This document shows, piece after piece, positions 13,916 through 32,790 of a stretch of DNA of 38,127 nt. Positions within the stretch are counted from its first letter, which is position 1, and each line of letters starts with the position of its first letter. Under the pieces are notes generated by a model. That model was not told where the DNA came from, searched no databases, and saw nothing but the letters and a program-made list of their open reading frames with translations. This DNA is from Candidatus Uhrbacteria bacterium (GTDB lineage Bacteria > Patescibacteriota > Patescibacteriia > UBA9934): the NCBI GenBank assembly GCA_030688135.1, contig JAUYIW010000022.1, positions 1 through 38,127 of the forward strand. Direction: 5' to 3'. The translations under genes were made by a program, and so were the position numbers.

Positions 13916-15817
13916 ATGTCCAATTTCATCACGTTCGTATTCCTGCTGTTGGCCATAGGTTGCGAAGTCGAGGAAACCAAGGTCGGCGAGAAGTCTGACG
14001 AACCGATCCCTTGTGACGGAACGGCCACTAACTGGCCAGCCGAAGATATAATGCACGCGCTCTATGTTTACGAGGATGGTTCTGCATTCATGTGGAGCAT
14101 CTACAACGTAGTGCTCGATCGCAAGTCATCGAACTGCGTTCGTACCGACGGCGACTACAAAGGGCTTACAGTTCCATGGAGCTGTATTGAACCAGTTGCT
14201 GGCGAACTGTTCGCCGACGGCAAGTGCCCTGCACGCAAGTGCATGTTTAATGTTTCGAACTCTGGTCCTTGCCCCGAAGCATATCTCGAGGACACTGGAG
14301 AAACCGGTGAAATCGAAACTCAGCCCGAAGCAAAACCAAGGACAGTTCGAAAGAGCCGGCCTGCAAAGGCAAAGGCTCCGACGGTAGAGGAAAAAGACAA
14401 GCAGATCTCACAGCTGGCAGTCGTTCACAACGCTCAACTTGAGCTGATTATTGAATCCGAATCCGAATCCGGATACAAAGTCGAGATGGAGTTCATTGGC
14501 AAACCAGAGCCCGAGCCTGATCTCGAGCTTGAACCCATCGCTCAGCCGGTTATCGAGGATGTAGAAACTCCAAAACTGCAAGCGAGCGTCCCTGATGCCG
14601 CTCCTGACATCAATCAGGAACCTACGGTTCATATGACAGAGCCTGTCGTGCAACCTGCGTCAGTAGGGATAGACATCGCTCAACTCAAGAAGCATAAAAC
14701 TGATATCCCGATTGCCAAAATCGAGCAAACCGTGCCAGAAGATAAGAACCAAAAAAAGGTGCTTTCTGTAAATAGCGACGGGAGCACGACGGTTCAGTAC
14801 GTTGACCGCGAGCCGGCTAAGCCAGCAAAGCAGGTTACGAAACCTGAACTAGAGCTTGTAGTGGCAGATCTAGAACCTCCGAAATCAAGCGTTCAACCAC
14901 TCGGACCAGTAGAAATACAGGCCGAAGCCAATGCAATCCGCAAGGCAACGCGCGAACAGCTTGAAGACGGCGACCTGGCGCCAATTGGCGACACGTACCA
15001 AACAATGCGAGTCGTAACTAGCGTCGATTCGGAAGTCATGGTCGTTCTTCCACCTAGAGGATCTTTGGACTTTCCAGTCGAAGGGCCAGGTACAGTGCTC
15101 CTTGAGGCGAGAATTCTCTACGAAAGTAGCGCAAGCGAAACAACGGAGGGAATTATCATAGGAACACACAAGGGAGTGTACAGAAACTCTCTCGAGTTCC
15201 GCAAAGCGCAGGAAGCAAATGCGATTATTGAGGGTAGTACACAGGTGCCATCATTGACCGCGACTGGAAAATTCGAGGTCAGGGAGGACGACAAGTTCCT
15301 CAATCTGTTGAATCCTTCCGCCGAAGGACCATGCCTGATTCGCCTGCATCTCATCATGAGTACTCCACTCGAAGGTGCGGATAGAGGCCCGCAGTTCCGT
15401 ACACCGAACTACGCTCAAATGGAACCAGCGAAGGGAAAAATGATAGTTGCGCCAGAACCAAACTGGCAAGACGTGCAGAGTGGCATGCACAGAAGTCACG
15501 ACTACCTAGTCAAGCACGTTGATTCGCTCGTGCAAAACACACGGGCTGATCTGGACATGTGCTACCTGACAGGTATGACCGAGGCTCCTGGACTCGAAGG
15601 TCGTATTGTAGTGAAGATCGTACTAGATACTGAAGGCAACTCCGAAGTATCGATCCCCTACTCCAATATGGGTGGTTTGGTAGGTTTCCAAACCTGTCTT
15701 TCTTTCACGTTTGAGACAATAGATTATACGGATGCAAACGGTGTACCCTACGAGGACTTCGTTGCCTACGTACCGGTGGACTTTACCGCCGAGACGTCTC
15801 CGGGATTTTTCCGGTAG
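13916..15817 (+). CDS. Putative lipoprotein with Cys-rich N-domain, Pro/Glu-rich linker and C-terminal AgmX/PglI-like (TonB-C-like) domain
   Basis: LLLAIGC lipobox; C-terminal DLDMCY...PGLEGRIVVKIVLDTEG...CL pattern. Confidence 0.65.
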   Translation: MSNFITFVFLLLAIGCEVEETKVGEKSDEPIPCDGTATNWPAEDIMHALYVYEDGSAFMWSIYNVVLDRKSSNCVRTDGDYKGLTVPWSCIEPVAGELFADGKCPARKCMFNVSNSGPCPEAYLEDTGETGEIETQPEAKPRTVRKSRPAKAKAPTVEEKDKQISQLAVVHNAQLELIIESESESGYKVEMEFIGKPEPEPDLELEPIAQPVIEDVETPKLQASVPDAAPDINQEPTVHMTEPVVQPASVGIDIAQLKKHKTDIPIAKIEQTVPEDKNQKKVLSVNSDGSTTVQYVDREPAKPAKQVTKPELELVVADLEPPKSSVQPLGPVEIQAEANAIRKATREQLEDGDLAPIGDTYQTMRVVTSVDSEVMVVLPPRGSLDFPVEGPGTVLLEARILYESSASETTEGIIIGTHKGVYRNSLEFRKAQEANAIIEGSTQVPSLTATGKFEVREDDKFLNLLNPSAEGPCLIRLHLIMSTPLEGADRGPQFRTPNYAQMEPAKGKMIVAPEPNWQDVQSGMHRSHDYLVKHVDSLVQNTRADLDMCYLTGMTEAPGLEGRIVVKIVLDTEGNSEVSIPYSNMGGLVGFQTCLSFTFETIDYTDANGVPYEDFVAYVPVDFTAETSPGFFR

Positions 15818-21731: not shown

Positions 21732-24647
21732 CTAGAATTTTTTAGTGATGATGTCCACCAGTCGATTCAAGAATTTCGGGAAGTCTTTTACATTAAATCG
21801 ACCTTTATAATCCCGCAGAATCAGTTCTTGCAAGGTTTGTTTGATGTCTTTAACAAACACATCTCGCTTTGAGGATTCCTGCCATCCACTATCTAGATCA
21901 TCCTCGATACGGATTCGAAGTTCTTTAACAAATTCCTTAATTTCCTCATCTTTTCCACCATCAACAAATTCTTGTGAGATGACATAAAGGGCGTATTCTT
22001 TCAAATCAAGCCCCAAATCTTTCGCCTCATCGCCCTTTGTCTTGATATCGCTCATCAATTCTTCATAGCGACGAATTCGTTCTGCAAGGTCAATTTGATT
22101 TTGCTCAAACTCGCGACGAATAGCTGTTAGTCGTTCGCTAAACTTCTGATAGGCGGGATTTTCATCAAGATTGATTGATATCTCCTGTTTGAGCATCTTC
22201 TCAAGATTGAGCGCCTTTTCTTCTTCATCCATTCCTTTGAGTCGCTCAAGTGTGTATAAATCATTTACGCGAAGTTCGCGGAAATTTTTGGTGATTCCTT
22301 CATAGTCAATAATATTGCTCTTAGTAATGAGCTCACGGACTTTCTCTCCATATTCTTCAAGTAAGTATCTATCATCCTCACTTCGGAATTCTTTCAAAAA
22401 GGCCAGATAGAAACTGGTCACCCATTCAAATGGGCGAATGTATTGCTTCAAGAATGGATCAGGAGAGAGAAACTCAAACAAGCTCTTGAGTTTCATGTAT
22501 TTCTCAACAAAGTATTTCTGCTTGTCTTGATTATCAATAAAAATCTTCAAACATCGACGAAGATTATCCATAGATGGATCTTCAATATTTACTCCCGTAA
22601 ATACTTTCATTACATCACTCAAAACATCAGAGAATCTCGCTTTCACTCGTTCAATATCAATCATCGCAGAATCAACGACATCTTCGTCAAAATCAAGCGC
22701 ATCATAGAGGTTACGGGTAATTCCGTAGTAGTCAATAATTTTTCCTGCTTCCTTGTTTTTATAGACACGATTCGTACGTGCAATCGCTTGCAGGAGGTTA
22801 TGATCGCGGAGCGGTTTATCGAGATACATAACTTGCTCAATCGGTGCGTCAAAACCAGTAAGTAGCATGTCGCAAACCAAAAGGAATTTCAGGGATGATT
22901 TTGGGTCTTTGAATTTCTCAATGATTTGCTCTCGTTCACGCTTGCTCGTGTTATAGACTTTCAAATCATCTGCATCACTATTTGGGTCTCCGGGGGAATA
23001 CACTACAGCCGACCATTCGGCAGGCACGAGCTTATCTAAGAGTTTTTTGTAGGTCGCTACTGCTTCGCGGTCATACGCAACAACCTGCCCCTTAAAGCCG
23101 TTTGGCTCCACATAGAGCTTATAATGCTCCACGATGTCCCTTGCCACGGCTTCCATACGTTTTGGGAGCTTCACCAGCGCCGCTTTTTTGCCATACTTCT
23201 TGATGAGTTCAGTCTTTTGTTTATCAGGCAAATCGCCAGCAATTTCTTCAAACTGTTGGTCAAGTTTTTCTTCATCAATAGAAAACTTTGAAAGTCGTGC
23301 TTCATAGGTCACTGGAATTGTCGCGCCGTCATCAATAGCTTGCTGGATAGAGTAGTAGTCAAGATATCGCTTTCCGTCTCCCTCGTAGTTTCGGAAAGTG
23401 TTTGTGTGCGTCTTGTCTACTGGCGTTCCAGTAAATCCAAAGAAGAACGCCTTTTTGAATGCATTGCGCATATTGATGCCCGACACGCCTTCGTCGCCTC
23501 GGTGTGCTTCGTCAGAAAGAACGATCACATTTTCATCCAGATTTTTTACTTTGTCGCCAAGTTCAGAAAACTTTTGAATGGTCGTGATGAATATGCCTTT
23601 CTCTGGCGACTGTATTTTTTCCTCCAAATCTTTGCGGGAAGTGACGCGTACAATATTTTTTCCACCTGCATTGGTAAATGTCTCAAATATCTGGTCATCC
23701 AAGTCCACTCGATCAACCAAAATAAATACTTTCGGATTGGCGAGCTGTTTATTGAAACGCAGTTTCCACGCAGTGAAATACATGGTGAGCGTTTTGCCTG
23801 ACCCTTGTGTGTGCCAAATGAGCCCTTGTCGCTTCTCTTTGCTTACTACACGCTCCACAATTTTATTCGTTGCCCGCATCTGCTGGTAACGAGCAATTTT
23901 CTTCACCAATTTCTCATTTTCCTTTTCAAACAAAATAAAGTTTTGGACAATATCCAAGAAGTTTTTCTTTGAGAGAAGTGAGAAAAGGGTCATCTCAAGC
24001 TCGCCACCAAGCTCTTTCTCAATATCTTCGTCTCGCCACTGAAGAAAGTATTGTTTTGGTGCGCCCGTTGCTCCGTAGACGGTTTTGAGTCCGTCACTGG
24101 CAATATTGAAACAGTTTGGGATAAACAGCTTGCGAGCTACTTTTTCATATCGTTTGAGCTGGTCAATACCATTTTCAAAACTCACTCCCTCCGAAGCGGT
24201 AGGACTTTTTGCCTCAATATCCACAAGCGGAAGTCCGTTCACAAAAATCAAAATATCGGGACGGATATTTTCGGTATCTCCTTCAAAATAAAATTGATTG
24301 GTAACAACAAATTGATTATTTTCTGGATTACTAAAATCAAGTAGTTTATAGTCGTGCTTTTTCCCTGTAACGGAATTCTTGAGGTTGATACCGTCTCGTA
24401 GTACTTTCAGGAATTCTTCGTTATTATCAATCTTCCTGACTTCGCGAATTACATTCTTAATCTCGCTCTCGTTCGCAGTAGGATTGAGCGCAGAAATAGC
24501 ACTCTTCAAAAGCGGCGTGATAATGTATTCAGTCTCAAGTTCGCGATATTTCGCAAACTCTTCCGGCTTTATGTACTCAAAGCCAAGCTTATCCTTAATA
24601 AACTTGATGATATAATTTTCTACTGTAACTTGTTCGTTAAATTTCAT
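21732..24647 (-). CDS. hsdR: Type I restriction endonuclease subunit R
   Basis: RPD...NGLPLVDIEAK nuclease motif, WHTQGSGKT, DEAHR, MLLTGFDAP, QAIARTNR. Confidence 0.96.
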   Translation of the reverse strand: MKFNEQVTVENYIIKFIKDKLGFEYIKPEEFAKYRELETEYIITPLLKSAISALNPTANESEIKNVIREVRKIDNNEEFLKVLRDGINLKNSVTGKKHDYKLLDFSNPENNQFVVTNQFYFEGDTENIRPDILIFVNGLPLVDIEAKSPTASEGVSFENGIDQLKRYEKVARKLFIPNCFNIASDGLKTVYGATGAPKQYFLQWRDEDIEKELGGELEMTLFSLLSKKNFLDIVQNFILFEKENEKLVKKIARYQQMRATNKIVERVVSKEKRQGLIWHTQGSGKTLTMYFTAWKLRFNKQLANPKVFILVDRVDLDDQIFETFTNAGGKNIVRVTSRKDLEEKIQSPEKGIFITTIQKFSELGDKVKNLDENVIVLSDEAHRGDEGVSGINMRNAFKKAFFFGFTGTPVDKTHTNTFRNYEGDGKRYLDYYSIQQAIDDGATIPVTYEARLSKFSIDEEKLDQQFEEIAGDLPDKQKTELIKKYGKKAALVKLPKRMEAVARDIVEHYKLYVEPNGFKGQVVAYDREAVATYKKLLDKLVPAEWSAVVYSPGDPNSDADDLKVYNTSKREREQIIEKFKDPKSSLKFLLVCDMLLTGFDAPIEQVMYLDKPLRDHNLLQAIARTNRVYKNKEAGKIIDYYGITRNLYDALDFDEDVVDSAMIDIERVKARFSDVLSDVMKVFTGVNIEDPSMDNLRRCLKIFIDNQDKQKYFVEKYMKLKSLFEFLSPDPFLKQYIRPFEWVTSFYLAFLKEFRSEDDRYLLEEYGEKVRELITKSNIIDYEGITKNFRELRVNDLYTLERLKGMDEEEKALNLEKMLKQEISINLDENPAYQKFSERLTAIRREFEQNQIDLAERIRRYEELMSDIKTKGDEAKDLGLDLKEYALYVISQEFVDGGKDEEIKEFVKELRIRIEDDLDSGWQESSKRDVFVKDIKQTLQELILRDYKGRFNVKDFPKFLNRLVDIITKKF

Positions 24648-24649
24648 AA

Positions 24650-25492
24650 TTATTTATCCAGTTTGTCGGGTTTCTTCAGCCCCTTAGTTTCTTCGGACTT
24701 CAGCTTTCTCTCCACCTTTTTAATATCTTCCTCCGCGGGCAATCTTTCAGGCGTAATTCCACGACTCAACAGTGTCTTTCTCACACTTTGATTGTTTGTG
24801 ATGTGTTCTTCCGAAATAGACTGTTCAGATCGCAATCTTTTTTCTTTCGAATTAAAGATAGTGATCTCAGTCGCAAAATCTTTCGCTTTCAAAAGAATTG
24901 TCGGCTGAAAATCTGCGAGCGCGCGACTATCTGGTACTCCGAGCCTAGCTTTCATCTCTTGGGTGGTATAGCCAAATAACGCTTTATCTCCCTTGCTTCG
25001 AATCAATCCAAAATTTCTGTCGCTTCCTGTTTGCTCAAAGATAACACCTGAAAGCTTTTTCTCGGTCTCTGTCAATTTGTGTCGAGCTAGTAACCTTTCA
25101 GAGTCTTGAATGCGTTTCTCGATAACCTCGAACTTCCGCGTCTGTACCGCAAAGTAATTTTGTGCAAAAGCTATTTGTTCTTTTCGAGGATCACCGTTTT
25201 GGGCTATGAGGTAACAAGCATATCTAGTGAGCATGACATCCAGTATCTCTTTCTGAGCTCCTTTGGGCATTTGGATCGTTTTCCCAGCGTCGGCAAAATG
25301 ATCCGATACCTTGTGACCCGTGTTTTCACAGGCTATTTTGGCCTTTGAAATAACACCCAAAAAGTTGTCCCACTTGTCATAGCCAAGGAGTTGTTGCAAA
25401 TCACGAGCAAGCCAGAACTCTACGCCATTGTCTGTTTTATTGGCATATTGCTCAAAATTATTCGTTAACGATTGTATAATTTCTTTTTTCAT
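24650..25492 (-). CDS. dinD: DNA damage-inducible protein D (DinD-like, Bro-N-type N-terminus)
   Basis: EFWLARDLQQLLGY, LTRYACYLIAQNGDPRKEQIAFAQNYFAVQTR, LPAEEDIKKVER. Confidence 0.88.
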   Translation of the reverse strand: MKKEIIQSLTNNFEQYANKTDNGVEFWLARDLQQLLGYDKWDNFLGVISKAKIACENTGHKVSDHFADAGKTIQMPKGAQKEILDVMLTRYACYLIAQNGDPRKEQIAFAQNYFAVQTRKFEVIEKRIQDSERLLARHKLTETEKKLSGVIFEQTGSDRNFGLIRSKGDKALFGYTTQEMKARLGVPDSRALADFQPTILLKAKDFATEITIFNSKEKRLRSEQSISEEHITNNQSVRKTLLSRGITPERLPAEEDIKKVERKLKSEETKGLKKPDKLDK

Positions 25493-25494
25493 AG

Positions 25495-25740
25495 TTATTT
25501 TTTCTTTTTTCCAACTCTAATAATCGGATCAAGATTATTTTTCTTTTTGCGATCAGGATTTGACTGTAGAAATTTTGCTTGTCCTTTTCTTTTTACAGTG
25601 TGGTAACCAGGCAAATTTCCTGCGTCGGCTTTTTTAATTAATTCCTTATTTTGTTTTTCAGTAAGATTCTTTAAATCTATAGAGCGAACATTTCTACCTG
25701 TCGATGTCTCTTTTATTGTTTTGTGTGTTTTATTTTTCAT
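25495..25740 (-). CDS. Small basic protein, DUF3892-like
   Basis: C-terminal FLQSNPD....NNLD resembles the DUF3892 signature; 81 aa, tightly packed in the operon. Confidence 0.6.
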   Translation of the reverse strand: MKNKTHKTIKETSTGRNVRSIDLKNLTEKQNKELIKKADAGNLPGYHTVKRKGQAKFLQSNPDRKKKNNLDPIIRVGKKKK

Positions 25741-25757
25741 AAGCGCTTTATTATTTG

Positions 25758-27038
25758 TTAATTTTTAACTCTCACCCTCCCACTCAATAAATCCTGCATC
25801 AGACCTTTTTTGAGGAGGGTAAGTTTTTCTTTTAATTTCTTATTGATCAAAATTTTCTCATTTACCGCTGATATTATATTGGCAATTTCTCTTTGTTCCG
25901 AAATTGGTATCAGTGGGATTTCTACTTGCTCAAGGCTCCCGACAGGAAGCTGTGGTTGAGCAGAGCCAGATCCCATACTTGAATACTTCGCCTCCATTTG
26001 CGGACTTGAAAAATATCTATATAAAAACACCGGGTCAAATTGATCTCCATGTCGCACTATAAGCATCCCAGAGTTAATACGGATATTATCAAAGGAAATT
26101 TTCTCATCGTAATATGCGACATTTCCAACAGTTCCTCTTGAAGTCAAAATAATATCTCCTCGCTCGAGCTTACCTTTTCGCAATGCTCGGTCTTTTTCTT
26201 GGGAGATAAAGCTTGCCTCATCAAAAATGAATCCGTTTTTGCTCACATTTTTAGCACTAAGAAACAGACAGAATCCTTCGGGTGAGAAATCTTCTTGTTT
26301 TGGATAATTCGTACCTCTGTCTCCATCAATTAACTTTATCGAGGAATTTCTTATGCTTACCACGTCCCACTCCTTAGGAATCTGTCCGATTTTTGTTTCC
26401 TTGAATTTTGTATGCCCAATCCCGCGAGTAAAAAGCTGTTGCATCAACCCGCGCTTGAGCTTTTCTGTCGCCTCAATCACTCCCTGCGTTTTCGCAATAT
26501 CCTCATCCACCGCCCCCAAAATCTCCGCAATTTTTTTCTGTTCTTTTTTTGATTTAGGAATGACAATTTCTAGATTTTTTATGTTACTTCCATACAAATG
26601 GACTATGGTTGTACCTTGCCCAAGTTTTCCGATTTCATTTTTTTTGTAATGAGTTAGATAGTATGCTAGGAAATTCGGATCATACGAATCAGCCTTTTTT
26701 CTCAAAATATTTATATCACCACCTAAAAGCACCGCATTTTCATTTAGTGCTGAGGCAATCGCGAGATCTCTAGCAACTGTTGTTGTAGATCCAGGAATAA
26801 GTATGTCACCATTGACTGAAGGAATACCCGCGTTTGAATTAGTCCTACTTTTTACATCTTCAATAACTTCGTCGTAAGTCGTAAATAGTTCCCCATACAG
26901 AACGCACTTATTTTTACCAGATGGGTCAATATCTTTTTTTGAGAGACCCTGTCCCTTCATGACATAGCAAATATCATCAACAAAAGTACTTTGCCATCCG
27001 TTCGGAATATTTTGTTGTGCTGTATTATTTTTTGTCAT
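25758..27038 (-). CDS. hsdS: Type I RM specificity subunit S
   Basis: Two TRDs, IPNGW/IPKEW, EQKKIAEIL/EQREIANII, LKRGLMQQL/KKGLMQDLLSG. Confidence 0.95.
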   Translation of the reverse strand: MTKNNTAQQNIPNGWQSTFVDDICYVMKGQGLSKKDIDPSGKNKCVLYGELFTTYDEVIEDVKSRTNSNAGIPSVNGDILIPGSTTTVARDLAIASALNENAVLLGGDINILRKKADSYDPNFLAYYLTHYKKNEIGKLGQGTTIVHLYGSNIKNLEIVIPKSKKEQKKIAEILGAVDEDIAKTQGVIEATEKLKRGLMQQLFTRGIGHTKFKETKIGQIPKEWDVVSIRNSSIKLIDGDRGTNYPKQEDFSPEGFCLFLSAKNVSKNGFIFDEASFISQEKDRALRKGKLERGDIILTSRGTVGNVAYYDEKISFDNIRINSGMLIVRHGDQFDPVFLYRYFSSPQMEAKYSSMGSGSAQPQLPVGSLEQVEIPLIPISEQREIANIISAVNEKILINKKLKEKLTLLKKGLMQDLLSGRVRVKN

Positions 27039-27780
27039 GTTTTGGTTTATGTTTCGATAGATGTGGGTCGGAAAGCATCACCTCCTTGAGGCGATCATTT
27101 TCTGTCTTCAAAATTTTCATCTTTTCAAGAAAATCTTCTTGAAATTCAAAAATGTTGAAGTCTTTGTTTACGCCATAAAATAAATCTAGTGCACCCATTA
27201 CTAAGTTCGCTGTAGCCCAAAGATCGGTTTTAATATGGCGGTCTTCTGAGCAATCAAAAAATTGTGTTTTAAATTTACCATCAACAAGACCCGAAGATGT
27301 CCGGTGAGCGTCTACAATATTTGCATGTGATGATAGTGCGTTGGTTTGACCTTTGTATTGTTTCAAAGACGCACTTCCGTCAGGGTATTTCTCATCAAGC
27401 CATTTATACATTTTTTTCTTCAAGTCATCATTGGGGTTCATCATTCCGTCCTCATCAATCAATGCAAACTTCTCTTTGTCTTTTTCAGGATCATTTTTAC
27501 CAATCGCAAATGATCCCCAGGCGGCTGCTTCTGATGCAAACCTAAGGTTAAAATTTGTCTGTATGTGATGGAAACGAACTGCTGATAAAAAAGCTAGTAT
27601 AATATGCTTCTGAAATGAACTGAGAAAAAGTAAAAAGTAAAAACTATTCGGATCAACTTTTTTTATAAACGAGTGGGCAAAATCCACCGCATACTCTGCG
27701 TGCAGAAAAAACTCCTCATTCATTAACTTGGCATTTTGAACTAATTCGTTTTCAGATTTTGAAATTTCTGCGACATTCAT
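27025..27780 (-). CDS. Hypothetical all-alpha protein between hsdM and hsdS (weak DUF5677/HEPN-like resemblance)
   Basis: 251-aa ORF coupled to both neighbours; LRxxxE and LSSH motifs. Confidence 0.65.
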   Translation of the reverse strand: MNVAEISKSENELVQNAKLMNEEFFLHAEYAVDFAHSFIKKVDPNSFYFLLFLSSFQKHIILAFLSAVRFHHIQTNFNLRFASEAAAWGSFAIGKNDPEKDKEKFALIDEDGMMNPNDDLKKKMYKWLDEKYPDGSASLKQYKGQTNALSSHANIVDAHRTSSGLVDGKFKTQFFDCSEDRHIKTDLWATANLVMGALDLFYGVNKDFNIFEFQEDFLEKMKILKTENDRLKEVMLSDPHLSKHKPKHDKK

Positions 27781-27783
27781 AAA

Positions 27784-29493
27784 TTAATATTTCAGTTCTT
27801 TTAGATACATCTCGACCTTTTTATCAATTGCTTCGCGATCTTTTTCAATTTCTTTCACCTCGCTCCACACGGTTTTTACATCCACCACCACCTCATCCTC
27901 AGCATTTTCTACATAGCGACGAACATTAAGATTGAATTCATTTTCCTCAAGCTCCTTAATATCTACGACACGAGCATATTTTTCAATATCTCGGTATTCC
28001 TTAAATGCTGATACCATTTTCTCGATGTCCTTCTTGCGAAGGCGGTTTTGATTTTTGCCTTCCTCATAGTCTTGCTCTGCATCAATGATGAGAATTTTGT
28101 TCTTATGAGCTTCTGGTTTGTTTTTGTTGAATATCACAATCGCCGCTGGAATACCTGTGCCGTAGAAAAGCTTTGCGGGGAGCGCGACGATGGCTTCAAT
28201 CAGGTCATTTTTGATAAGTTCTTCACGGATACGTCCCTCGGCACCACCACGGAAAAGTACGCCATGTGGAAGCACGATACCGGCGCGCCCGTTTTCATTC
28301 ATTGACTTCACCATATGAAGCACGAAAGCATAGTCGGCTTTTTTTGCTGGAGGCATTTCGTAGCCAGCCACTCGTCCGTATTTGTCAGATTTAAATATCT
28401 CGTATTCCCACTCCTTGATTGAGTACGGAGGATTTGCAACGCAAATATCGAACGTCTTAAGCGAACCGTCCGGGTTTAGAAATTTTGGATCGGCGAGTGT
28501 ATCTCCGCGCTGAATATCGGCGCTATCGAGCCCGTGGAGGAACATATTGATTTTTGCAATCGCGTATGTCCCGATATTGATTTCTTGCCCATAGAGATAG
28601 AGCGATCGAGCTTTCTTTTCTCCCGCTTCATTTTTGAGATAATGATACGCCTCCAATAAGAAGCCGCCTGAACCAACAGCCATGTCATAGATATGGTCTT
28701 TCTCGTGTGGTTTCAAAATGTTTATAATCACACGCTCAACTTCACGAGGGGTATAGAATTCTCCGCCTTTTTTGCCCGCATCCGCTGCGAACTGCTCAAT
28801 AAGATATTCGTATGCGTCCCCTAGGAGATCAGAACTTATATAAGTATCTCCGAAATTGTGTTGTGAGAAATGATTGATGAGACGCTGGAGCGTTTCGTTG
28901 GGAAATTTGTCTTTGTTAGCAAAATCTAAGTCGTCAAAAATCTTGTCCAGTTTTGGACTATTTGCGTTTGTGAGTTTATCAAAAATCTCATTGAGCTTTT
29001 GACCAATGCCACCAGCTTGTTTTTGGACTACTTCCCAGCGACAATCTTTTGGAACTTGAAAACGATGATTGTGATCTGCTCGTGCGACTTCTTCATCGTG
29101 ATATTCTTCAAGGAATTTTTTATATTCCTCATCCCAAGAATCACTTATGCGTTTATAAAAAAGAAGTCCGAAAATATATTTCTTATAATCCGAGCTATCA
29201 ATTTTTCCACGCAAGATGTCCGCACTTCTCCAAAGAAACTGCTTTAATTGAGTGAGATTCATTTTCCCTGCGTCGTCTGTAAGTGAGGCATTGAAACCTT
29301 TCATGATACTTTTGTCATTCGCAATTCGCTCGATGTCTTCGGGACGATATTTTCGATCGCCGCGAGGACCAACACGCAGAGGGGTGATGAGCCCCTTTTT
29401 CTCCCAATTACGAAGCGTGTCTTGGTGAATACCAAAAATGCTTGATACTTCGCTAATTGAAAGTAATGCCTTCTCGTTTAATGTTTTTTTCAT
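27784..29493 (-). CDS. hsdM: Type I RM methyltransferase subunit M with N-terminal MerR-type HTH
   Basis: LSISEVSSIFGIHQDTLRNWEKKG...GDRKY HTH; GEFYTPR, AVGSGGF, NPPY. Confidence 0.95.
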   Translation of the reverse strand: MKKTLNEKALLSISEVSSIFGIHQDTLRNWEKKGLITPLRVGPRGDRKYRPEDIERIANDKSIMKGFNASLTDDAGKMNLTQLKQFLWRSADILRGKIDSSDYKKYIFGLLFYKRISDSWDEEYKKFLEEYHDEEVARADHNHRFQVPKDCRWEVVQKQAGGIGQKLNEIFDKLTNANSPKLDKIFDDLDFANKDKFPNETLQRLINHFSQHNFGDTYISSDLLGDAYEYLIEQFAADAGKKGGEFYTPREVERVIINILKPHEKDHIYDMAVGSGGFLLEAYHYLKNEAGEKKARSLYLYGQEINIGTYAIAKINMFLHGLDSADIQRGDTLADPKFLNPDGSLKTFDICVANPPYSIKEWEYEIFKSDKYGRVAGYEMPPAKKADYAFVLHMVKSMNENGRAGIVLPHGVLFRGGAEGRIREELIKNDLIEAIVALPAKLFYGTGIPAAIVIFNKNKPEAHKNKILIIDAEQDYEEGKNQNRLRKKDIEKMVSAFKEYRDIEKYARVVDIKELEENEFNLNVRRYVENAEDEVVVDVKTVWSEVKEIEKDREAIDKKVEMYLKELKY

Positions 29494-30188: not shown

Positions 30189-30683
30189 TCACCCGTTGTT
30201 CACCTCGAGACGACCATTGCTCTCCCAGAAATCCCAGACTCCCTCGGACTCCCACGTGATGTAGGTAGTCTCGCCCTGGGTGTTTTCGTCCGTGAAGAGC
30301 GAGAGCTGGGGGCCGGAACCGTACACGATAAGCCCCGTGCACTCGGCGTCAAAATGCGAAGGCACGTCGTAGAAGATGAACTCGAACACTCCGTTGTCGA
30401 GAATAAAGGTCTCGGCCACCTGTTCCATCTCACCTTCGTTAGTTTCGAAGGTGCAGGTAACGGTCGCGTCGGAGTAGCCGCTATAGTAGGCGGCCCACTC
30501 GATGGTCATCGAATTGTCGGGCTCGGCGGAGCCGTATCCACCGCTGCCGTCTTCGTCGTACTCACCGCAGAAGACGACCTCCCCGCCTTCGTAGCAGACG
30601 CCGAGAGCTTCAGTTTCGCACCCGGTCAGGCCGAGGGTGAGGAACAGGCCGACGAGACTCATGAAGAAGTTGCTGAAACGCAT
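30189..30683 (-). CDS. Hypothetical acidic lipoprotein (GC-rich)
   Basis: MRFSNFF...LGLTGC lipobox, AAGGA SD, C/G-rich third positions in this frame, downstream hairpin. Confidence 0.75.
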   Translation of the reverse strand: MRFSNFFMSLVGLFLTLGLTGCETEALGVCYEGGEVVFCGEYDEDGSGGYGSAEPDNSMTIEWAAYYSGYSDATVTCTFETNEGEMEQVAETFILDNGVFEFIFYDVPSHFDAECTGLIVYGSGPQLSLFTDENTQGETTYITWESEGVWDFWESNGRLEVNNG

Positions 30684-30786
30684 GTTGCGTCCTTTGGGGC
30701 AAAGCCCCGGTTTATTTTTGAATTTTGCTAAGAACCATCACTGGCCAGAAACAATATTCTGATCAACGATAGTTCCAAAATGAACG

Positions 30787-30836
30787 AAAAAGGCAGGCTT
30801 TGGTAACTCAACTGAGAGGTACAAAAACCTGCCTTT
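30787..30836 (-). terminator. Intrinsic terminator closing the putative array RNA
   Basis: Minus strand AAAGGCAGGTTTT...AAAGCCTGCCTTTTT. Confidence 0.75.
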
Positions 30837-30933
30837 GTCAGCGAATCGATCTCCGAACAGACACATTGGTCTGTCCCTACACGAAAACTGACTTGTCCTT
30901 AACCCCCGGACTAGGGCTCTCTCCTGTAATTGG

Positions 30934-31219
30934 GAAGGTTCGTCTGGATGGACTCTGTTCGTTGCGACCCTGTCGACCTGCGGCCGCGTTCATCTGTCGG
31001 CTGAGGGTTCGTTCAGGCCTCGAGGGTTCATCCAACGGTTTGTTCGTTGGCCAACTGACGACTGGCTTTGGCCGTTCGTCTGGCGGACGTGGGTTCATTC
31101 GTGGTGCGAAGGTTCGTCTGGATGGACTCTGTTCGTTGCGACCCTGTCGACCTGCGGCCGCGTTCATCTGACGACTGAGGGTTCGTTCAGGCCTCGAAGG
31201 TTCATCAAACGGTTTGTTC
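30934..31219. repeat. 112-bp direct repeat, 174-bp offset, 4 mismatches
   Basis: 30934-31045 versus 31108-31219. Confidence 0.95.
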
Positions 31220-31263
31220 AAATAACATTCGCTACGGTGCCGGCATCCTAATTTACAAAATGT

Positions 31264-31292
31264 ACTATACCACATTTTGGCACTTTTGTCAA
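31264..31292 (-). promoter_or_regulatory. Near-consensus sigma70 promoter pointing into the repeat array
   Basis: Minus strand TTGACA-17bp-TATAGT with extended TG. Confidence 0.75.
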
Positions 31293-31383
31293 GCCCTGGG
31301 GTTGATATTTTGGCTAAAATTAGCCACGCTTCCAAACCTAGCCAAATTTCAAAATCAATAATATGTGCTATAATAACAGCACT

Positions 31384-32790
31384 ATGAGAACTATAAAATT
31401 TCCAACTATAATCGTGGCAATAGCAATCGTAATAGTATCGGCATTAGTGAGTCCGAATCAGGCTTTTGCTTATGACCAAAACTATATTTTAAGTGACTGG
31501 GATTTAACCGATCCCTTTGCCCTTGATTTAAATCAAATCCAAAACTTTCTAGAACGTGGCTATTTAGCTGATTATAAAACCGAGGATTCAGAGGGCGACG
31601 TTCGCTATGCCGCGGACATTATTTGGAATGCAGCGCAAAACTACAATATTAGTCCTAAATTCCTTCTTGTTCTTCTTCAAAAAGAGCAAAGCCTAATCGA
31701 AGACGATAGCCCAACCGAAAAACAGCTTAGCTGGGCAACCGGCTACGCTGTATGCGACGATTGCTCAATGAGCGCCCCATCGATTCAACGCTGGAAAGGC
31801 TTTGGTAAACAAGTTAACTCTGCTGCAATGCAATTTAGCGAAGGATACCTAGCTGACATCGAGGCTACCGGCTCGACTCAGGGAAAGTACGGCCCTGGCA
31901 TTCCAGTTGAGATTGATGGCGAAATAATCGTACCGGCAAACGCAGCAACAGCTGCCATGTATGCTTACACTCCGCACATTCATGGAAATATAAACTTTTC
32001 TAGAATTTGGGAGCGCTGGTTTAGCATTCAATACCCTTCTGGAACTTTGCTCAAAATCGCAGGCGAATCCGGAGTCTATCTAATCGAGTACGGTTACAAA
32101 CGACCAATAGAAAGCTGGAGCGCGCTTCTTTCTAGGTTTAATCCTTCACTAATGATTGAAGTTGCTAAAAACTCTCTTGATCTATATCCAGACGGAAACC
32201 CAATAGCCTTCCCAAACTATTCCCTTTTGCAAGATGATGACGGCAATATTTACTTGCTCGTTGATGACTCATTACGCCACATCGACAGCATGGAAACTTT
32301 CCGCTACATTGGATTTGCAGAAGATGAAATTGTTAAAATCGAAAATGATGACTTAGCGTATTTTGAAAAAGGGCTTCCGCTTACAATGCTAAGTGCCGAC
32401 CCTGGCGAGCAACTTTTGCAACTATCTAGCAATGGTGCGATGTTTTATATAAAAGATGGTTATAGGCATGCCATCACCGACAAAGCAATTTTGACTGCTA
32501 GATTCCCTAACGCTTACTTGCAAAGTGTACAAGCAGTGGTAGTTGAGCAATACGCAGAAGGTCGTGCACTAACTCTACCTGACGGATATTTGATTAAATC
32601 TACCGATAGCCCCGCAGTGTACGTTATTAGCGAAGGCGAACGTAGATCTATTGGATCTGAAGAAATATTTCTTTCATATGGCTGGTCTTGGGATGATATT
32701 GTAGAACTTTCACCTTCTGCGCTTAACCTTCATCCTTTAGGACTCGCAATCGATAATCCACTTGATACTCTAATGCTCGCTACCGAATAA
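31384..32790 (+). CDS. Secreted/surface protein: putative lysozyme-like N-domain plus repeated C-terminal beta modules
   Basis: Signal peptide (NQAFA), ISPKFLLVLLQKEQSL, AMYAYTPH, repeated G.L.K...VY.I..G.RR units; TGCTATAAT upstream supports ATG 31384. Confidence 0.7.
   Translation: MRTIKFPTIIVAIAIVIVSALVSPNQAFAYDQNYILSDWDLTDPFALDLNQIQNFLERGYLADYKTEDSEGDVRYAADIIWNAAQNYNISPKFLLVLLQKEQSLIEDDSPTEKQLSWATGYAVCDDCSMSAPSIQRWKGFGKQVNSAAMQFSEGYLADIEATGSTQGKYGPGIPVEIDGEIIVPANAATAAMYAYTPHIHGNINFSRIWERWFSIQYPSGTLLKIAGESGVYLIEYGYKRPIESWSALLSRFNPSLMIEVAKNSLDLYPDGNPIAFPNYSLLQDDDGNIYLLVDDSLRHIDSMETFRYIGFAEDEIVKIENDDLAYFEKGLPLTMLSADPGEQLLQLSSNGAMFYIKDGYRHAITDKAILTARFPNAYLQSVQAVVVEQYAEGRALTLPDGYLIKSTDSPAVYVISEGERRSIGSEEIFLSYGWSWDDIVELSPSALNLHPLGLAIDNPLDTLMLATE

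Follow-up and report, generated by a model that had tools for sequence, protein, structure and literature searches.

Repetitive extragenic palindromes and bacterial interspersed mosaic elements (REP/BIME) of enterobacteria and BOX elements of pneumococci are interspersed mosaic repeats. They occur in many, mostly intergenic copies within one genome, consist of short hairpin modules that vary in order, number and orientation with conserved linkers between them, lie in transcribed operon spacers, and are species-specific, being present or absent at orthologous sites. Riboswitch-like or attenuator leaders, which combine an H-type pseudoknot with an intrinsic terminator, form another general class. 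Traits of both come together at positions 30787-31292 of a 38,127-nt stretch of DNA (contig JAUYIW010000022.1, the window) from the genome of Candidatus Uhrbacteria bacterium (GCA_030688135.1; 1.04 Mb, 42% GC). The locus comprises two parts that would differ in age, namely a conserved 3' core RNA of ~160 nt and a younger array of short motifs upstream of it. With moderate confidence, it is best read as a structured leader RNA in front of a GC-rich lipoprotein gene, within which a REP/BOX-like mosaic repeat has undergone lineage-specific expansion.

Arrays of short repeats are known from further systems. The sponge RNAs CsrB and RsmZ carry many GGA motifs and have CsrA or RsmA as their partner. 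The type III toxin-antitoxin system ToxIN is laid out as promoter, repeats, terminator and gene, with near-identical tandem repeats of ~34-36 nt and an endoribonuclease toxin encoded downstream, and CRISPR arrays consist of repeats longer than 20 nt accompanied by cas genes.

Arrays of tandem interspaced guide RNAs (TIGR arrays) are common in Patescibacteria together with their Tas proteins, according to two sources (PMC12045711; bioRxiv 10.64898/2026.09.09.750476). As described there, the units are 36 nt long with two ~9-nt spacers, giving a half-period of 18 nt, and a Tas gene with a Nop domain lies adjacent. Dual-repeat TIGR arrays alternate two repeats of 8-12 nt (edge and loop), starting with a box D 'UG' and ending with a box C 'CCA', and stem-loop TIGR arrays hold two spacers within each stem (same sources).

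The locus was compared with 68 genomes of the family (15 genera) and with 151 genomes sampled from the order (55 genera). The genome under study (G000) is 92% complete, with ~8% unassembled. Its contigs are designated C8 and so on; G001 denotes the sister species, the only genome of the same genus.

A predicted transcription unit

The stretch reads as one non-coding transcription unit of ~470 nt on the minus strand and is probably transcribed. Its parts and the gene that follows are listed in the order of the RNA.

31264-31292, minus strand: sigma-70 type promoter, with -35 TTGACA at 31292-31287, a 17-nt spacer and an extended -10 element TG-n-TATAGT at 31269-31264
31222-31257, minus strand: 5' transcript segment before the first motif, holding a small TGCCGGCA palindrome as in the dispersed elements (from the inverted-repeat listing)
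30938-31221, minus strand: array with 13 exact A[CU]GAAC motifs, a degenerate UUGAAC in front of them, in units of 16, 19, 19, 31, 19, 19, 19, 32, 16, 19, 19, 31 and 19 nt
31108-31219, minus strand: duplicated block, promoter-nearer copy (self-comparison)
31131-31161, minus strand: 31-nt hairpin unit with a 6-bp stem, a conserved CAG..CG.CAG loop and then AACGAAC (unit dissection)
31042-31073, minus strand: 32-nt hairpin unit with another 6-bp stem and the same loop type (unit dissection)
30934-31045, minus strand: duplicated block, core-nearer copy, with four differences from the other copy
30957-30987, minus strand: 31-nt hairpin unit, duplicate of 31131-31161 (repeat and unit dissection)
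30783-30944, minus strand: conserved core RNA, a full-length match to covariance model R1 (149.5 bits)
30917-30924, minus strand: purine tract GGAGAGAG, to which the terminator's apical loop is complementary (loop pairing comparison)
30895-30918, minus strand: H-type pseudoknot, stem 1 pairing 30918-30914 with 30905-30901 and stem 2 pairing 30911-30908 with 30898-30895
30855-30876, minus strand: middle hairpin, variable among homologues (helix 2 of the model alignment)
30787-30836, minus strand: intrinsic-terminator hairpin and U run, with apical CCUCUC at 30819-30814
30189-30683, minus strand: lipoprotein gene of 164 aa with a lipobox signal peptide, downstream of the RNA

The promoter (TTGACA-17-TATAGT) agrees with the consensus at 11 of 12 positions and has a TG before the -10 element, and the same promoter type stands in front of the homologous RNAs of relatives. 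The terminator is an inverted repeat with 24-nt arms (30786-30809 and 30816-30839) that are 83% complementary, followed by a U run on the minus strand; it was found as an inverted repeat, and a simple terminator scan of the window did not list it. From these signals we infer transcription of the unit, its end and a start site near 31257. A first-pass annotation, made by a model from the letters alone, had described a near-consensus minus-strand promoter that points into ~470 nt closed by a terminator. Both signals were found as described, the terminator being a long imperfect hairpin with its U run. Folding of the whole transcript gave a z-score of -2.3, a value that is uninformative on the array itself.

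A conserved structured core

On the comparative evidence, the core is a conserved structured RNA of this Patescibacteria order and is absent from Rfam 15. Model R1 was built from three sequences: that of the window and two found by BLAST, a paralogue on contig 8 and the homologue of another genus. The window is thus a training sequence and its 149.5-bit match holds by construction; independent support for its core comes from the pseudoknot it can form, the complementary terminator loop and the promoter in front. R1 has full-length matches in 12 of the 15 genera of the family (27 of 68 genomes) and, within the order, in 25 of 55 genera and five families (42 of 151 genomes), with one to four copies per matching genome. 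Three copies are present in this genome: in the window, on C8, and a weak one at C62:6039-6185.

The order of elements from 5' to 3' is the purine tract GAGAGAG, the H-type pseudoknot at once after it, a variable hairpin and the terminator. All 27 distinct homologues can form the pseudoknot, using 13 versions of stem 1 and 16 versions of stem 2. Their pairing totals 243 bp, whereas 300 shuffles average 42 and reach 81 at most; these pairs were counted by script, and the MAFFT alignment did not register the stems of variable length. In the R1 alignment, 89.5% of the cells pair, against 68.6% when shuffled and 39-51% with the partners slid. Changes on both sides are seen for 28 of its 30 pairs, and for 20 of 21 in the terminator hairpin (helix 3). 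The purine tract and the terminator's apical loop are complementary over at least 5 nt in 24 of the 27 sequences, and the bases flanking tract and loop covary (UU with AA, AA with UU, UA with UA). The structured 3' domain of the first-pass annotation is thereby confirmed, as a conserved core with a covarying pseudoknot and terminator. This 3' double-pseudoknot/terminator domain is conserved and is probably the functional part of the unit.

The Rfam/Infernal search that had been suggested as a check gave no Rfam 15 family for the window at the gathering threshold, in keeping with the claim of an undescribed RNA. With E values up to 10, the region 30650-31400 yielded only a chance match to mir-375 (E 1.9), and 20 homologous loci searched at the gathering threshold contained tRNAs only. 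A literature word search returned no relevant Patescibacteria RNA, and the claim of novelty is limited to 'not in Rfam 15'. A hammerhead-like or small open reading frame (ORF) interpretation of the conserved 5' AAGAUGA of the homologues was dropped; the AUG is not conserved and reads AUC in one genus.

Like riboswitch-like and attenuator leaders, the core combines a compact pseudoknot with a terminator shortly downstream of it, lies 5' of same-strand genes and occurs in few copies per genome. Unlike them, it has no Rfam 15 family and no known ligand or binding protein, the genes downstream are GC-rich orphans rather than metabolic genes, and the loop of its terminator itself would dock on the purine tract. 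To our knowledge, almost no regulatory RNAs have been described in Patescibacteria. The core defines a class of structured RNA new to Rfam 15, and as a possible regulator of surface-protein genes, whether a riboswitch or an attenuator under protein control, it is a concrete candidate. The two results, core RNA and array, carry unequal weight.

Genes beside the core

The core is most likely a cis-acting leader whose terminator gates transcription into the lipoprotein gene, as its position and architecture suggest. The lipoprotein gene starts 104 nt past the terminator on the same strand, and a scan of the window detected no promoter-like site between the terminator and its ATG. Its GC content is 0.59, versus 0.42 for the genome; the product falls in no Pfam family and has just one homologue. 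Past the terminator, the window and C8 copies have the hairpin, the ribosome-binding region and the ATG in common. Across core loci, the same-strand DNA downstream has a GC content of 0.5-0.7, compared with 0.42, and the genes there are orphans, eight of ten sampled lacking a Pfam family. Several of them encode lipoproteins (in the window and in genomes G034, G018, G010 and G013). In the proposed mechanism, the pyrimidine apical loop of the terminator would pair with the purine tract, and the core would act in cis to set the amount of transcription that passes the terminator into the lipoprotein gene.

A gene for a TrmB-family helix-turn-helix (HTH) regulator (PF01978) lies just upstream and divergent in 15 of 30 core loci, for example at L058:410-1228 on the minus strand. 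The TrmB-family protein is a candidate partner or regulator of the core RNA; the window copy is not of this TrmB-adjacent type.

Two observations concern the DNA past the terminator. At window positions 30694-30710, a GC hairpin with a T run reads as a plus-strand terminator; on the minus strand it stands just before the ribosome-binding site of the lipoprotein gene, and it is conserved in the C8 paralogue. At TrmB-type loci, ~500-900 nt after the terminator are GC-rich, as at L058:1655-2585 (G028), with like stretches at L060, L061, L068, L074, L078, L080 and L081. The stretch in G028 has no ORF of at least 70 aa on the RNA strand, and a 175-aa ORF on the opposite strand overlaps it. Across three genera, these stretches share conserved blocks, further GAGAGA-loop hairpins and an invariant 15-mer (L058:1918-1932). 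They are not in Rfam 15, this genome does not contain the 15-mer, and they may represent a much larger structured RNA.

Anatomy of the array

Between start site and core lie the 13 exact motifs, which read GTTCRT on the plus strand (30938-31205) and A[CU]GAAC on the RNA; the minus strand of the same span holds no GTTCRT. The whole window contains 59 matches to GTTCRT, versus a shuffle mean of 41.8. On the RNA, the exact motifs follow each other in units of 19, 19, 31, 19, 19, 19, 32, 16, 19, 19, 31 and 19 nt, preceded by the degenerate copy (UUGAAC; GTTCAA at 31216). The repeat core is thus a single 6-nt sequence, the bases before it varying between CAG, GA and AA. The intervening variable segments of 10-13 nt are partly conserved, with shared CYUC starts and only ~6 distinct versions. 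The three long units contain 6-bp stems that are flush with the motif and differ in sequence, while the CAG..CG.CAG loop is kept. Hairpin units like these, with different stems, occur on contigs C8, C21, C43 and C18.

The array amounts to 1.6 copies of a superunit of eight units and 174 nt. Positions 30931-31045 and 31105-31219 are 96% identical at an offset of 174 nt, and the 112-nt core of this duplication (30934-31045 and 31108-31219) has four differences. Logan contigs of the probable source run end at the repeat edges. In that run, a 63-nt piece inside the duplicate (31108-31170) has a depth of 24.3, versus ~11.6 in its flanks; as the run is not independent of the assembly, this doubled depth is consistent with two copies without being independent evidence for them. 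The inventory of the array in the first-pass annotation therefore holds throughout: all 13 motif starts are exact at spacings of 16, 19, 31 or 32 nt, with the degenerate copy at 31216; pairing is kept despite differing stem sequences in all three long units, around the same loop; and the recent duplication of a 112-bp block was recovered.

Age of the array

From the predicted start to the core, the window measures 312 nt and the C8 paralogue, which has three units, 112 nt; in 26 other loci the distance runs from -6 to 89 nt. The most direct comparison is offered by the orthologous locus of the sister species G001 (L066). Its divergent 475-aa gene is the same (76% identical), it too has the core RNA, and the orthologous lipoprotein gene follows on the same strand (55% identical); no array is present there, and start and core are only ~17 nt apart. 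Since the array is absent from an orthologous locus with the same flanking genes, it is, on this comparison, young and local and specific to the lineage, and the RNA family can function without it.

A BLAST comparison with 60 relatives recovered mostly the promoter and core of the region and never the array. Homologous arrays, which the first-pass annotation had proposed to seek in related genomes, were thus found in none of them. A scan of genome contigs for four motifs at 19-nt spacing gave at least 119 stretches; the titles among the matches listed belong to unrelated, mostly GC-rich taxa, and the scan is uninformative. A scan of metagenome contigs for the three-unit module returned eight matches, all of them unrelated simple or coding repeats, and thus no homologous array elsewhere.

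The GAAC of the repeat forms part of the core's conserved 5' flank in many genera (GAAC, MUU, ACAA), and the window and C8 have their final three units in common, of 19 nt, 31 nt (a hairpin unit) and 19 nt. A likely history runs from an ancestral three-unit module to eight units and then to a partial duplication. The array would have arisen by tandem expansion, between start site and core, of a mosaic repeat peculiar to this genome, in each of whose modules A[CU]GAAC comes after a small variable hairpin or a segment of 10-13 nt. An old amplification would have produced the 8-unit, 174-nt superunit, to which the recent duplication would have added five more units.

A genome-wide mosaic repeat family

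Outside the array, this genome contains 11 further clusters of at least three motifs, and BLAST with an element query found ~12 loci in both orientations. In the dispersed modules, A[CU]GAAC comes after either a small hairpin, whose sequence varies, or a segment of 10-13 nt in which YCGUCAG recurs; the elements combine a few recurrent module types with a palindrome of the CTGCCGGCAGG type. Flush stems of at least 4 bp occur in 13 of 44 neighbouring motif pairs outside the array; for 30 control hexamers, the mean is 1.7 and the highest count 6. Within one spacer, the left half often carries the complementary motif and the right half the motif, forming inverted doublets. Element sites include the groES-groEL, nusG-rplK and secY-adk spacers, whose flanks were checked, and other intergenic positions. 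A ~22-nt unit just upstream of groEL is common to the array and the groEL leader. Ten of 12 elements are free of any ORF of at least 100 aa, and one is overlapped by a 102-aa antisense ORF. One element (C43:2995-3035) lies inside a 552-aa open frame, which may reflect an in-frame insertion or a spurious ORF.

The three-motif pattern has 10 matches in this genome and 0-1 in the 67 other family genomes, except for one genome whose four matches represent a coding repeat. Spacers at orthologous sites differ accordingly in length: nusG-rplK measures 211 nt here versus 47 nt in G001, and groES-groEL 211-217 nt versus 116 nt. The sister species has an interspersed repeat of its own, a 23-nt palindrome in five copies (with up to two mismatches) that has no copies in G000, G028 or G004. 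Its positions in G001 are:

C1:15323, C19:17230, C1:14089, C12:6454 and C37:7074: 23-nt palindromic repeat, up to two mismatches

The modules thus behave as mosaic repeats of the REP/BIME/BOX type. Many, mostly intergenic copies, a mosaic order, number and orientation of short hairpin modules, conserved linkers, positions in transcribed operon spacers and presence or absence at orthologous sites were all observed. The classic REP definition applies only in part: classic REPs come with a cognate Y1 transposase (RAYT) that the same repeat flanks. This 1-Mb genome has seven Y1_Tnp genes (RAYT/IS200-like), one with stop codons and each flanked on both sides by its own palindrome; none of the seven flanking palindromes carries the motif.

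C38:18092, C63:6461, C4:39365, C23:5840, C51:5932, C19:5181 and C28:1554: Y1_Tnp genes

We know of no transposase for BOX elements either. Further differences from REP and BOX are the very small size of the modules (11-26 nt plus a 6-nt linker), the stems that vary in sequence while the linker stays fixed, and the largest copy being a direct array of 13 units inside a dedicated promoter-terminator unit.

Weighing the preferred explanation

Under the explanation by expansion of a mosaic repeat within a leader, the array would lack a specific function, and if active at all it would most likely serve as a REP/BOX-like structured extension affecting transcript stability or processing. The array also shows that tiny genomes of this kind carry fast-evolving, species-specific mosaic repeats, and such repeats are able to balloon inside a transcribed RNA.

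Several points weigh against this explanation. All 13 motifs are co-oriented, in a regular 19-nt phase and directly behind one of the window's best promoters; the array is more orderly than typical REP clusters, which could reflect selection on the RNA. The array shares the unit upstream of groEL, as a decoy would, and no transposase is linked to the modules, the Y1/RAYT-like genes having other palindromes. Concerning the core, the R1 alignment was fitted to the model and leans towards its structure. The cis-leader role is drawn from position only, and the downstream genes are heterogeneous; with a TrmB-family regulator beside half of the loci, the core may instead be a small RNA that stands alone. 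That the RNA is transcribed, where it begins and ends and how it is processed are predictions.

Alternative explanations

Of the roles suggested in the first-pass annotation, that of a CsrB-like protein sponge survives in modified form. Resemblance to CsrB/RsmZ lies in one RNA, behind a strong predicted promoter, that repeats a short motif many times, on small hairpins or between them. The partner assumed in such systems is missing, Pfam CsrA having no match in this genome; the motif is A[CU]GAAC and not GGA, and the array is not conserved within the genus. What remains is a trans-acting decoy for another factor, in which 13 single-stranded A[CU]GAAC sites and the shared units titrate some RNA-binding protein or RNase that otherwise acts on the same modules in mRNA leaders and intercistronic regions (groEL, rplK, adk). 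The strong promoter driving 13 co-oriented sites would suit such a role, as would the location of the motifs in linkers between hairpins and the occurrence of the same unit types in the groES-groEL, nusG-rplK and secY-adk spacers, including the ~22-nt unit before groEL. The motif family is, however, confined to this genome among the 68, and the orthologous RNA of the sister species lacks the sites; a protein-RNA regulon would hardly arise and vanish so fast. Both orientations of the dispersed elements are also seen inside a single spacer, and no candidate for the binder was identified. A decoy is unlikely on balance, though it fares best among the alternatives.

More broadly, the array might have become a newly evolved trans-acting RNA, the leader having turned either into a 13-site decoy or into a carrier of guides for an effector that is invisible to Pfam. 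Decoy or guides would then act on the hairpin and ACGAAC modules at the groEL, rplK and adk leaders and spacers. If true, this would amount to a recently formed RNA regulon, or to a system resembling TIGR in which no Nop protein is recognisable; this reading is regarded as quite unlikely.

A TIGR-like guide array, orphan or divergent, whose short repeats would flank guides of ~10 nt used by an effector that has escaped recognition, is improbable. As in TIGR arrays, short repeats alternate with variable segments of ~9-12 nt, or 10-13 nt as counted here, in a Patescibacteria host; the 19-nt period is near the TIGR half-period, and the array ends before a terminator. Set against the same descriptions, the locus differs in having one repeat type with a single 6-nt core instead of two alternating repeats, no UG...CCA frame or box C/D letters, and units of 16, 19, 31 and 32 nt in place of a regular 36 nt. 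The loops of its hairpin units are conserved rather than variable, and the array is missing from the orthologue, its modules being dispersed singly in operon spacers. Searches with Pfam Nop, Nop5-N and IS110 gave no match in this genome, and Pfam Nop none in the 68 family genomes, although Pfam may miss a divergent Tas and the genome is 92% complete; no Nop domain occurs among the neighbours of the array either, as had been noted for the window at first. The profile PF23667, named for TIGR mining in one source (PMC12045711), is an unrelated CUB family in the Pfam copy used, and its search says nothing.

The would-be spacers also behave unlike guides. They share their CYUC starts, and when compared with the genome the variable segments have exact matches no longer than those of shuffles, apart from other members of the repeat family and a lone 13-nt match at C4:26496, which is taken as chance. 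The array does not look like a set of guides, and the initial proposal of a guide array is not sustained, given the single 6-nt core, the absence of Pfam matches to Nop, IS110 and Cas1 in this genome, the lack of an array in the orthologue and the scattering of modules in both orientations. Its exclusion of CRISPR stands, the repeat core being 6-9 nt and Pfam Cas1 having no match in this genome. The REP/BOX-like expansion seen here implies that short-repeat, short-spacer arrays of Patescibacteria are not to be read as TIGR-like unless an effector and conservation are found.

A feature acting at the DNA level, either the template and variable repeat pair of a diversity-generating retroelement (DGR) or iteron-like protein-binding sites, is highly improbable. 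The four differences between the duplicated blocks have the look of DGR mutagenesis: read on the plus strand, the promoter-proximal copy has A at all four positions, where the other has T, G, G and C. Our own hypergeometric figure for A-only differences, with 17 A in 112 nt, is ~4e-4 before allowing for eight choices of base and copy, and the genome has three reverse-transcriptase genes in open frames of 343-371 aa:

C18:25846-26457, C82:12747-13361 and C64:659-1276: reverse transcriptases, possibly of DGR type

None of the three lies on this contig, however, no plausible plus-strand target ORF ends in the 'variable' copy, and only four of the 17 A positions differ; an adjacent reverse transcriptase and target ORF, as in a DGR, were thus not found. 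As to protein-binding sites, the stems vary yet keep pairing, which argues for single-strand structure rather than duplex sites, and the 19-bp spacing would be off the helical repeat.

Translation of the 152-aa minus-strand ORF, or of a shorter form, is a very remote prospect. The frame is open across the array, and all four duplicate differences fall at its third positions, as the first-pass annotation had pointed out; this phasing was reproduced and is weak with four events (~0.04 for any one phase by our own arithmetic). Several differences between the window and C8 are also synonymous. These 'synonymous' changes are, however, covarying pseudoknot pairs, and homologues differ by insertions and deletions that are not multiples of three. 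Units of 16, 19, 31 and 32 nt place the motif in all three frames, and a plus-strand frame is open over the same stretch too, as is usual for GC-rich repeats. The possible starts of the ORF lie upstream of or inside the promoter, with an ATG within the -10 box, and the region is missing from the orthologue in the sister species. A Pfam search gave no family for the ORF, and none of 40 word-sharing candidates among 5.8 billion proteins reached E <= 0.01. The array region is accordingly read from its sequence as non-coding and not a protein gene, as had been proposed at first.

Just as remote is a type III toxin-antitoxin, with the repeat RNA processed into units that inhibit the downstream product: the order of promoter, repeats, terminator and gene is the same, but the units are neither identical nor ~36 nt long, 150 nt of conserved structured RNA lie between repeats and terminator, and the downstream product, which bears a lipoprotein signal peptide, belongs to no Pfam family and has only one homologue, so that the antitoxin array suggested at the outset, which calls for a nuclease, is abandoned as scarcely credible.

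Other features of the window

The genes of the window include that of PriA. A type I restriction-modification operon occupies 21732-29493 on the minus strand, with the following members:

21732-24647, minus strand: HsdR
25758-27038, minus strand: HsdS
27784-29493, minus strand: HsdM with a MerR-type HTH

At 13916-15817, the plus strand carries a 633-aa ORF that has no Pfam family and lies in a second GC-rich island, with a GC content of 0.51-0.52 compared with ~0.40 around it.

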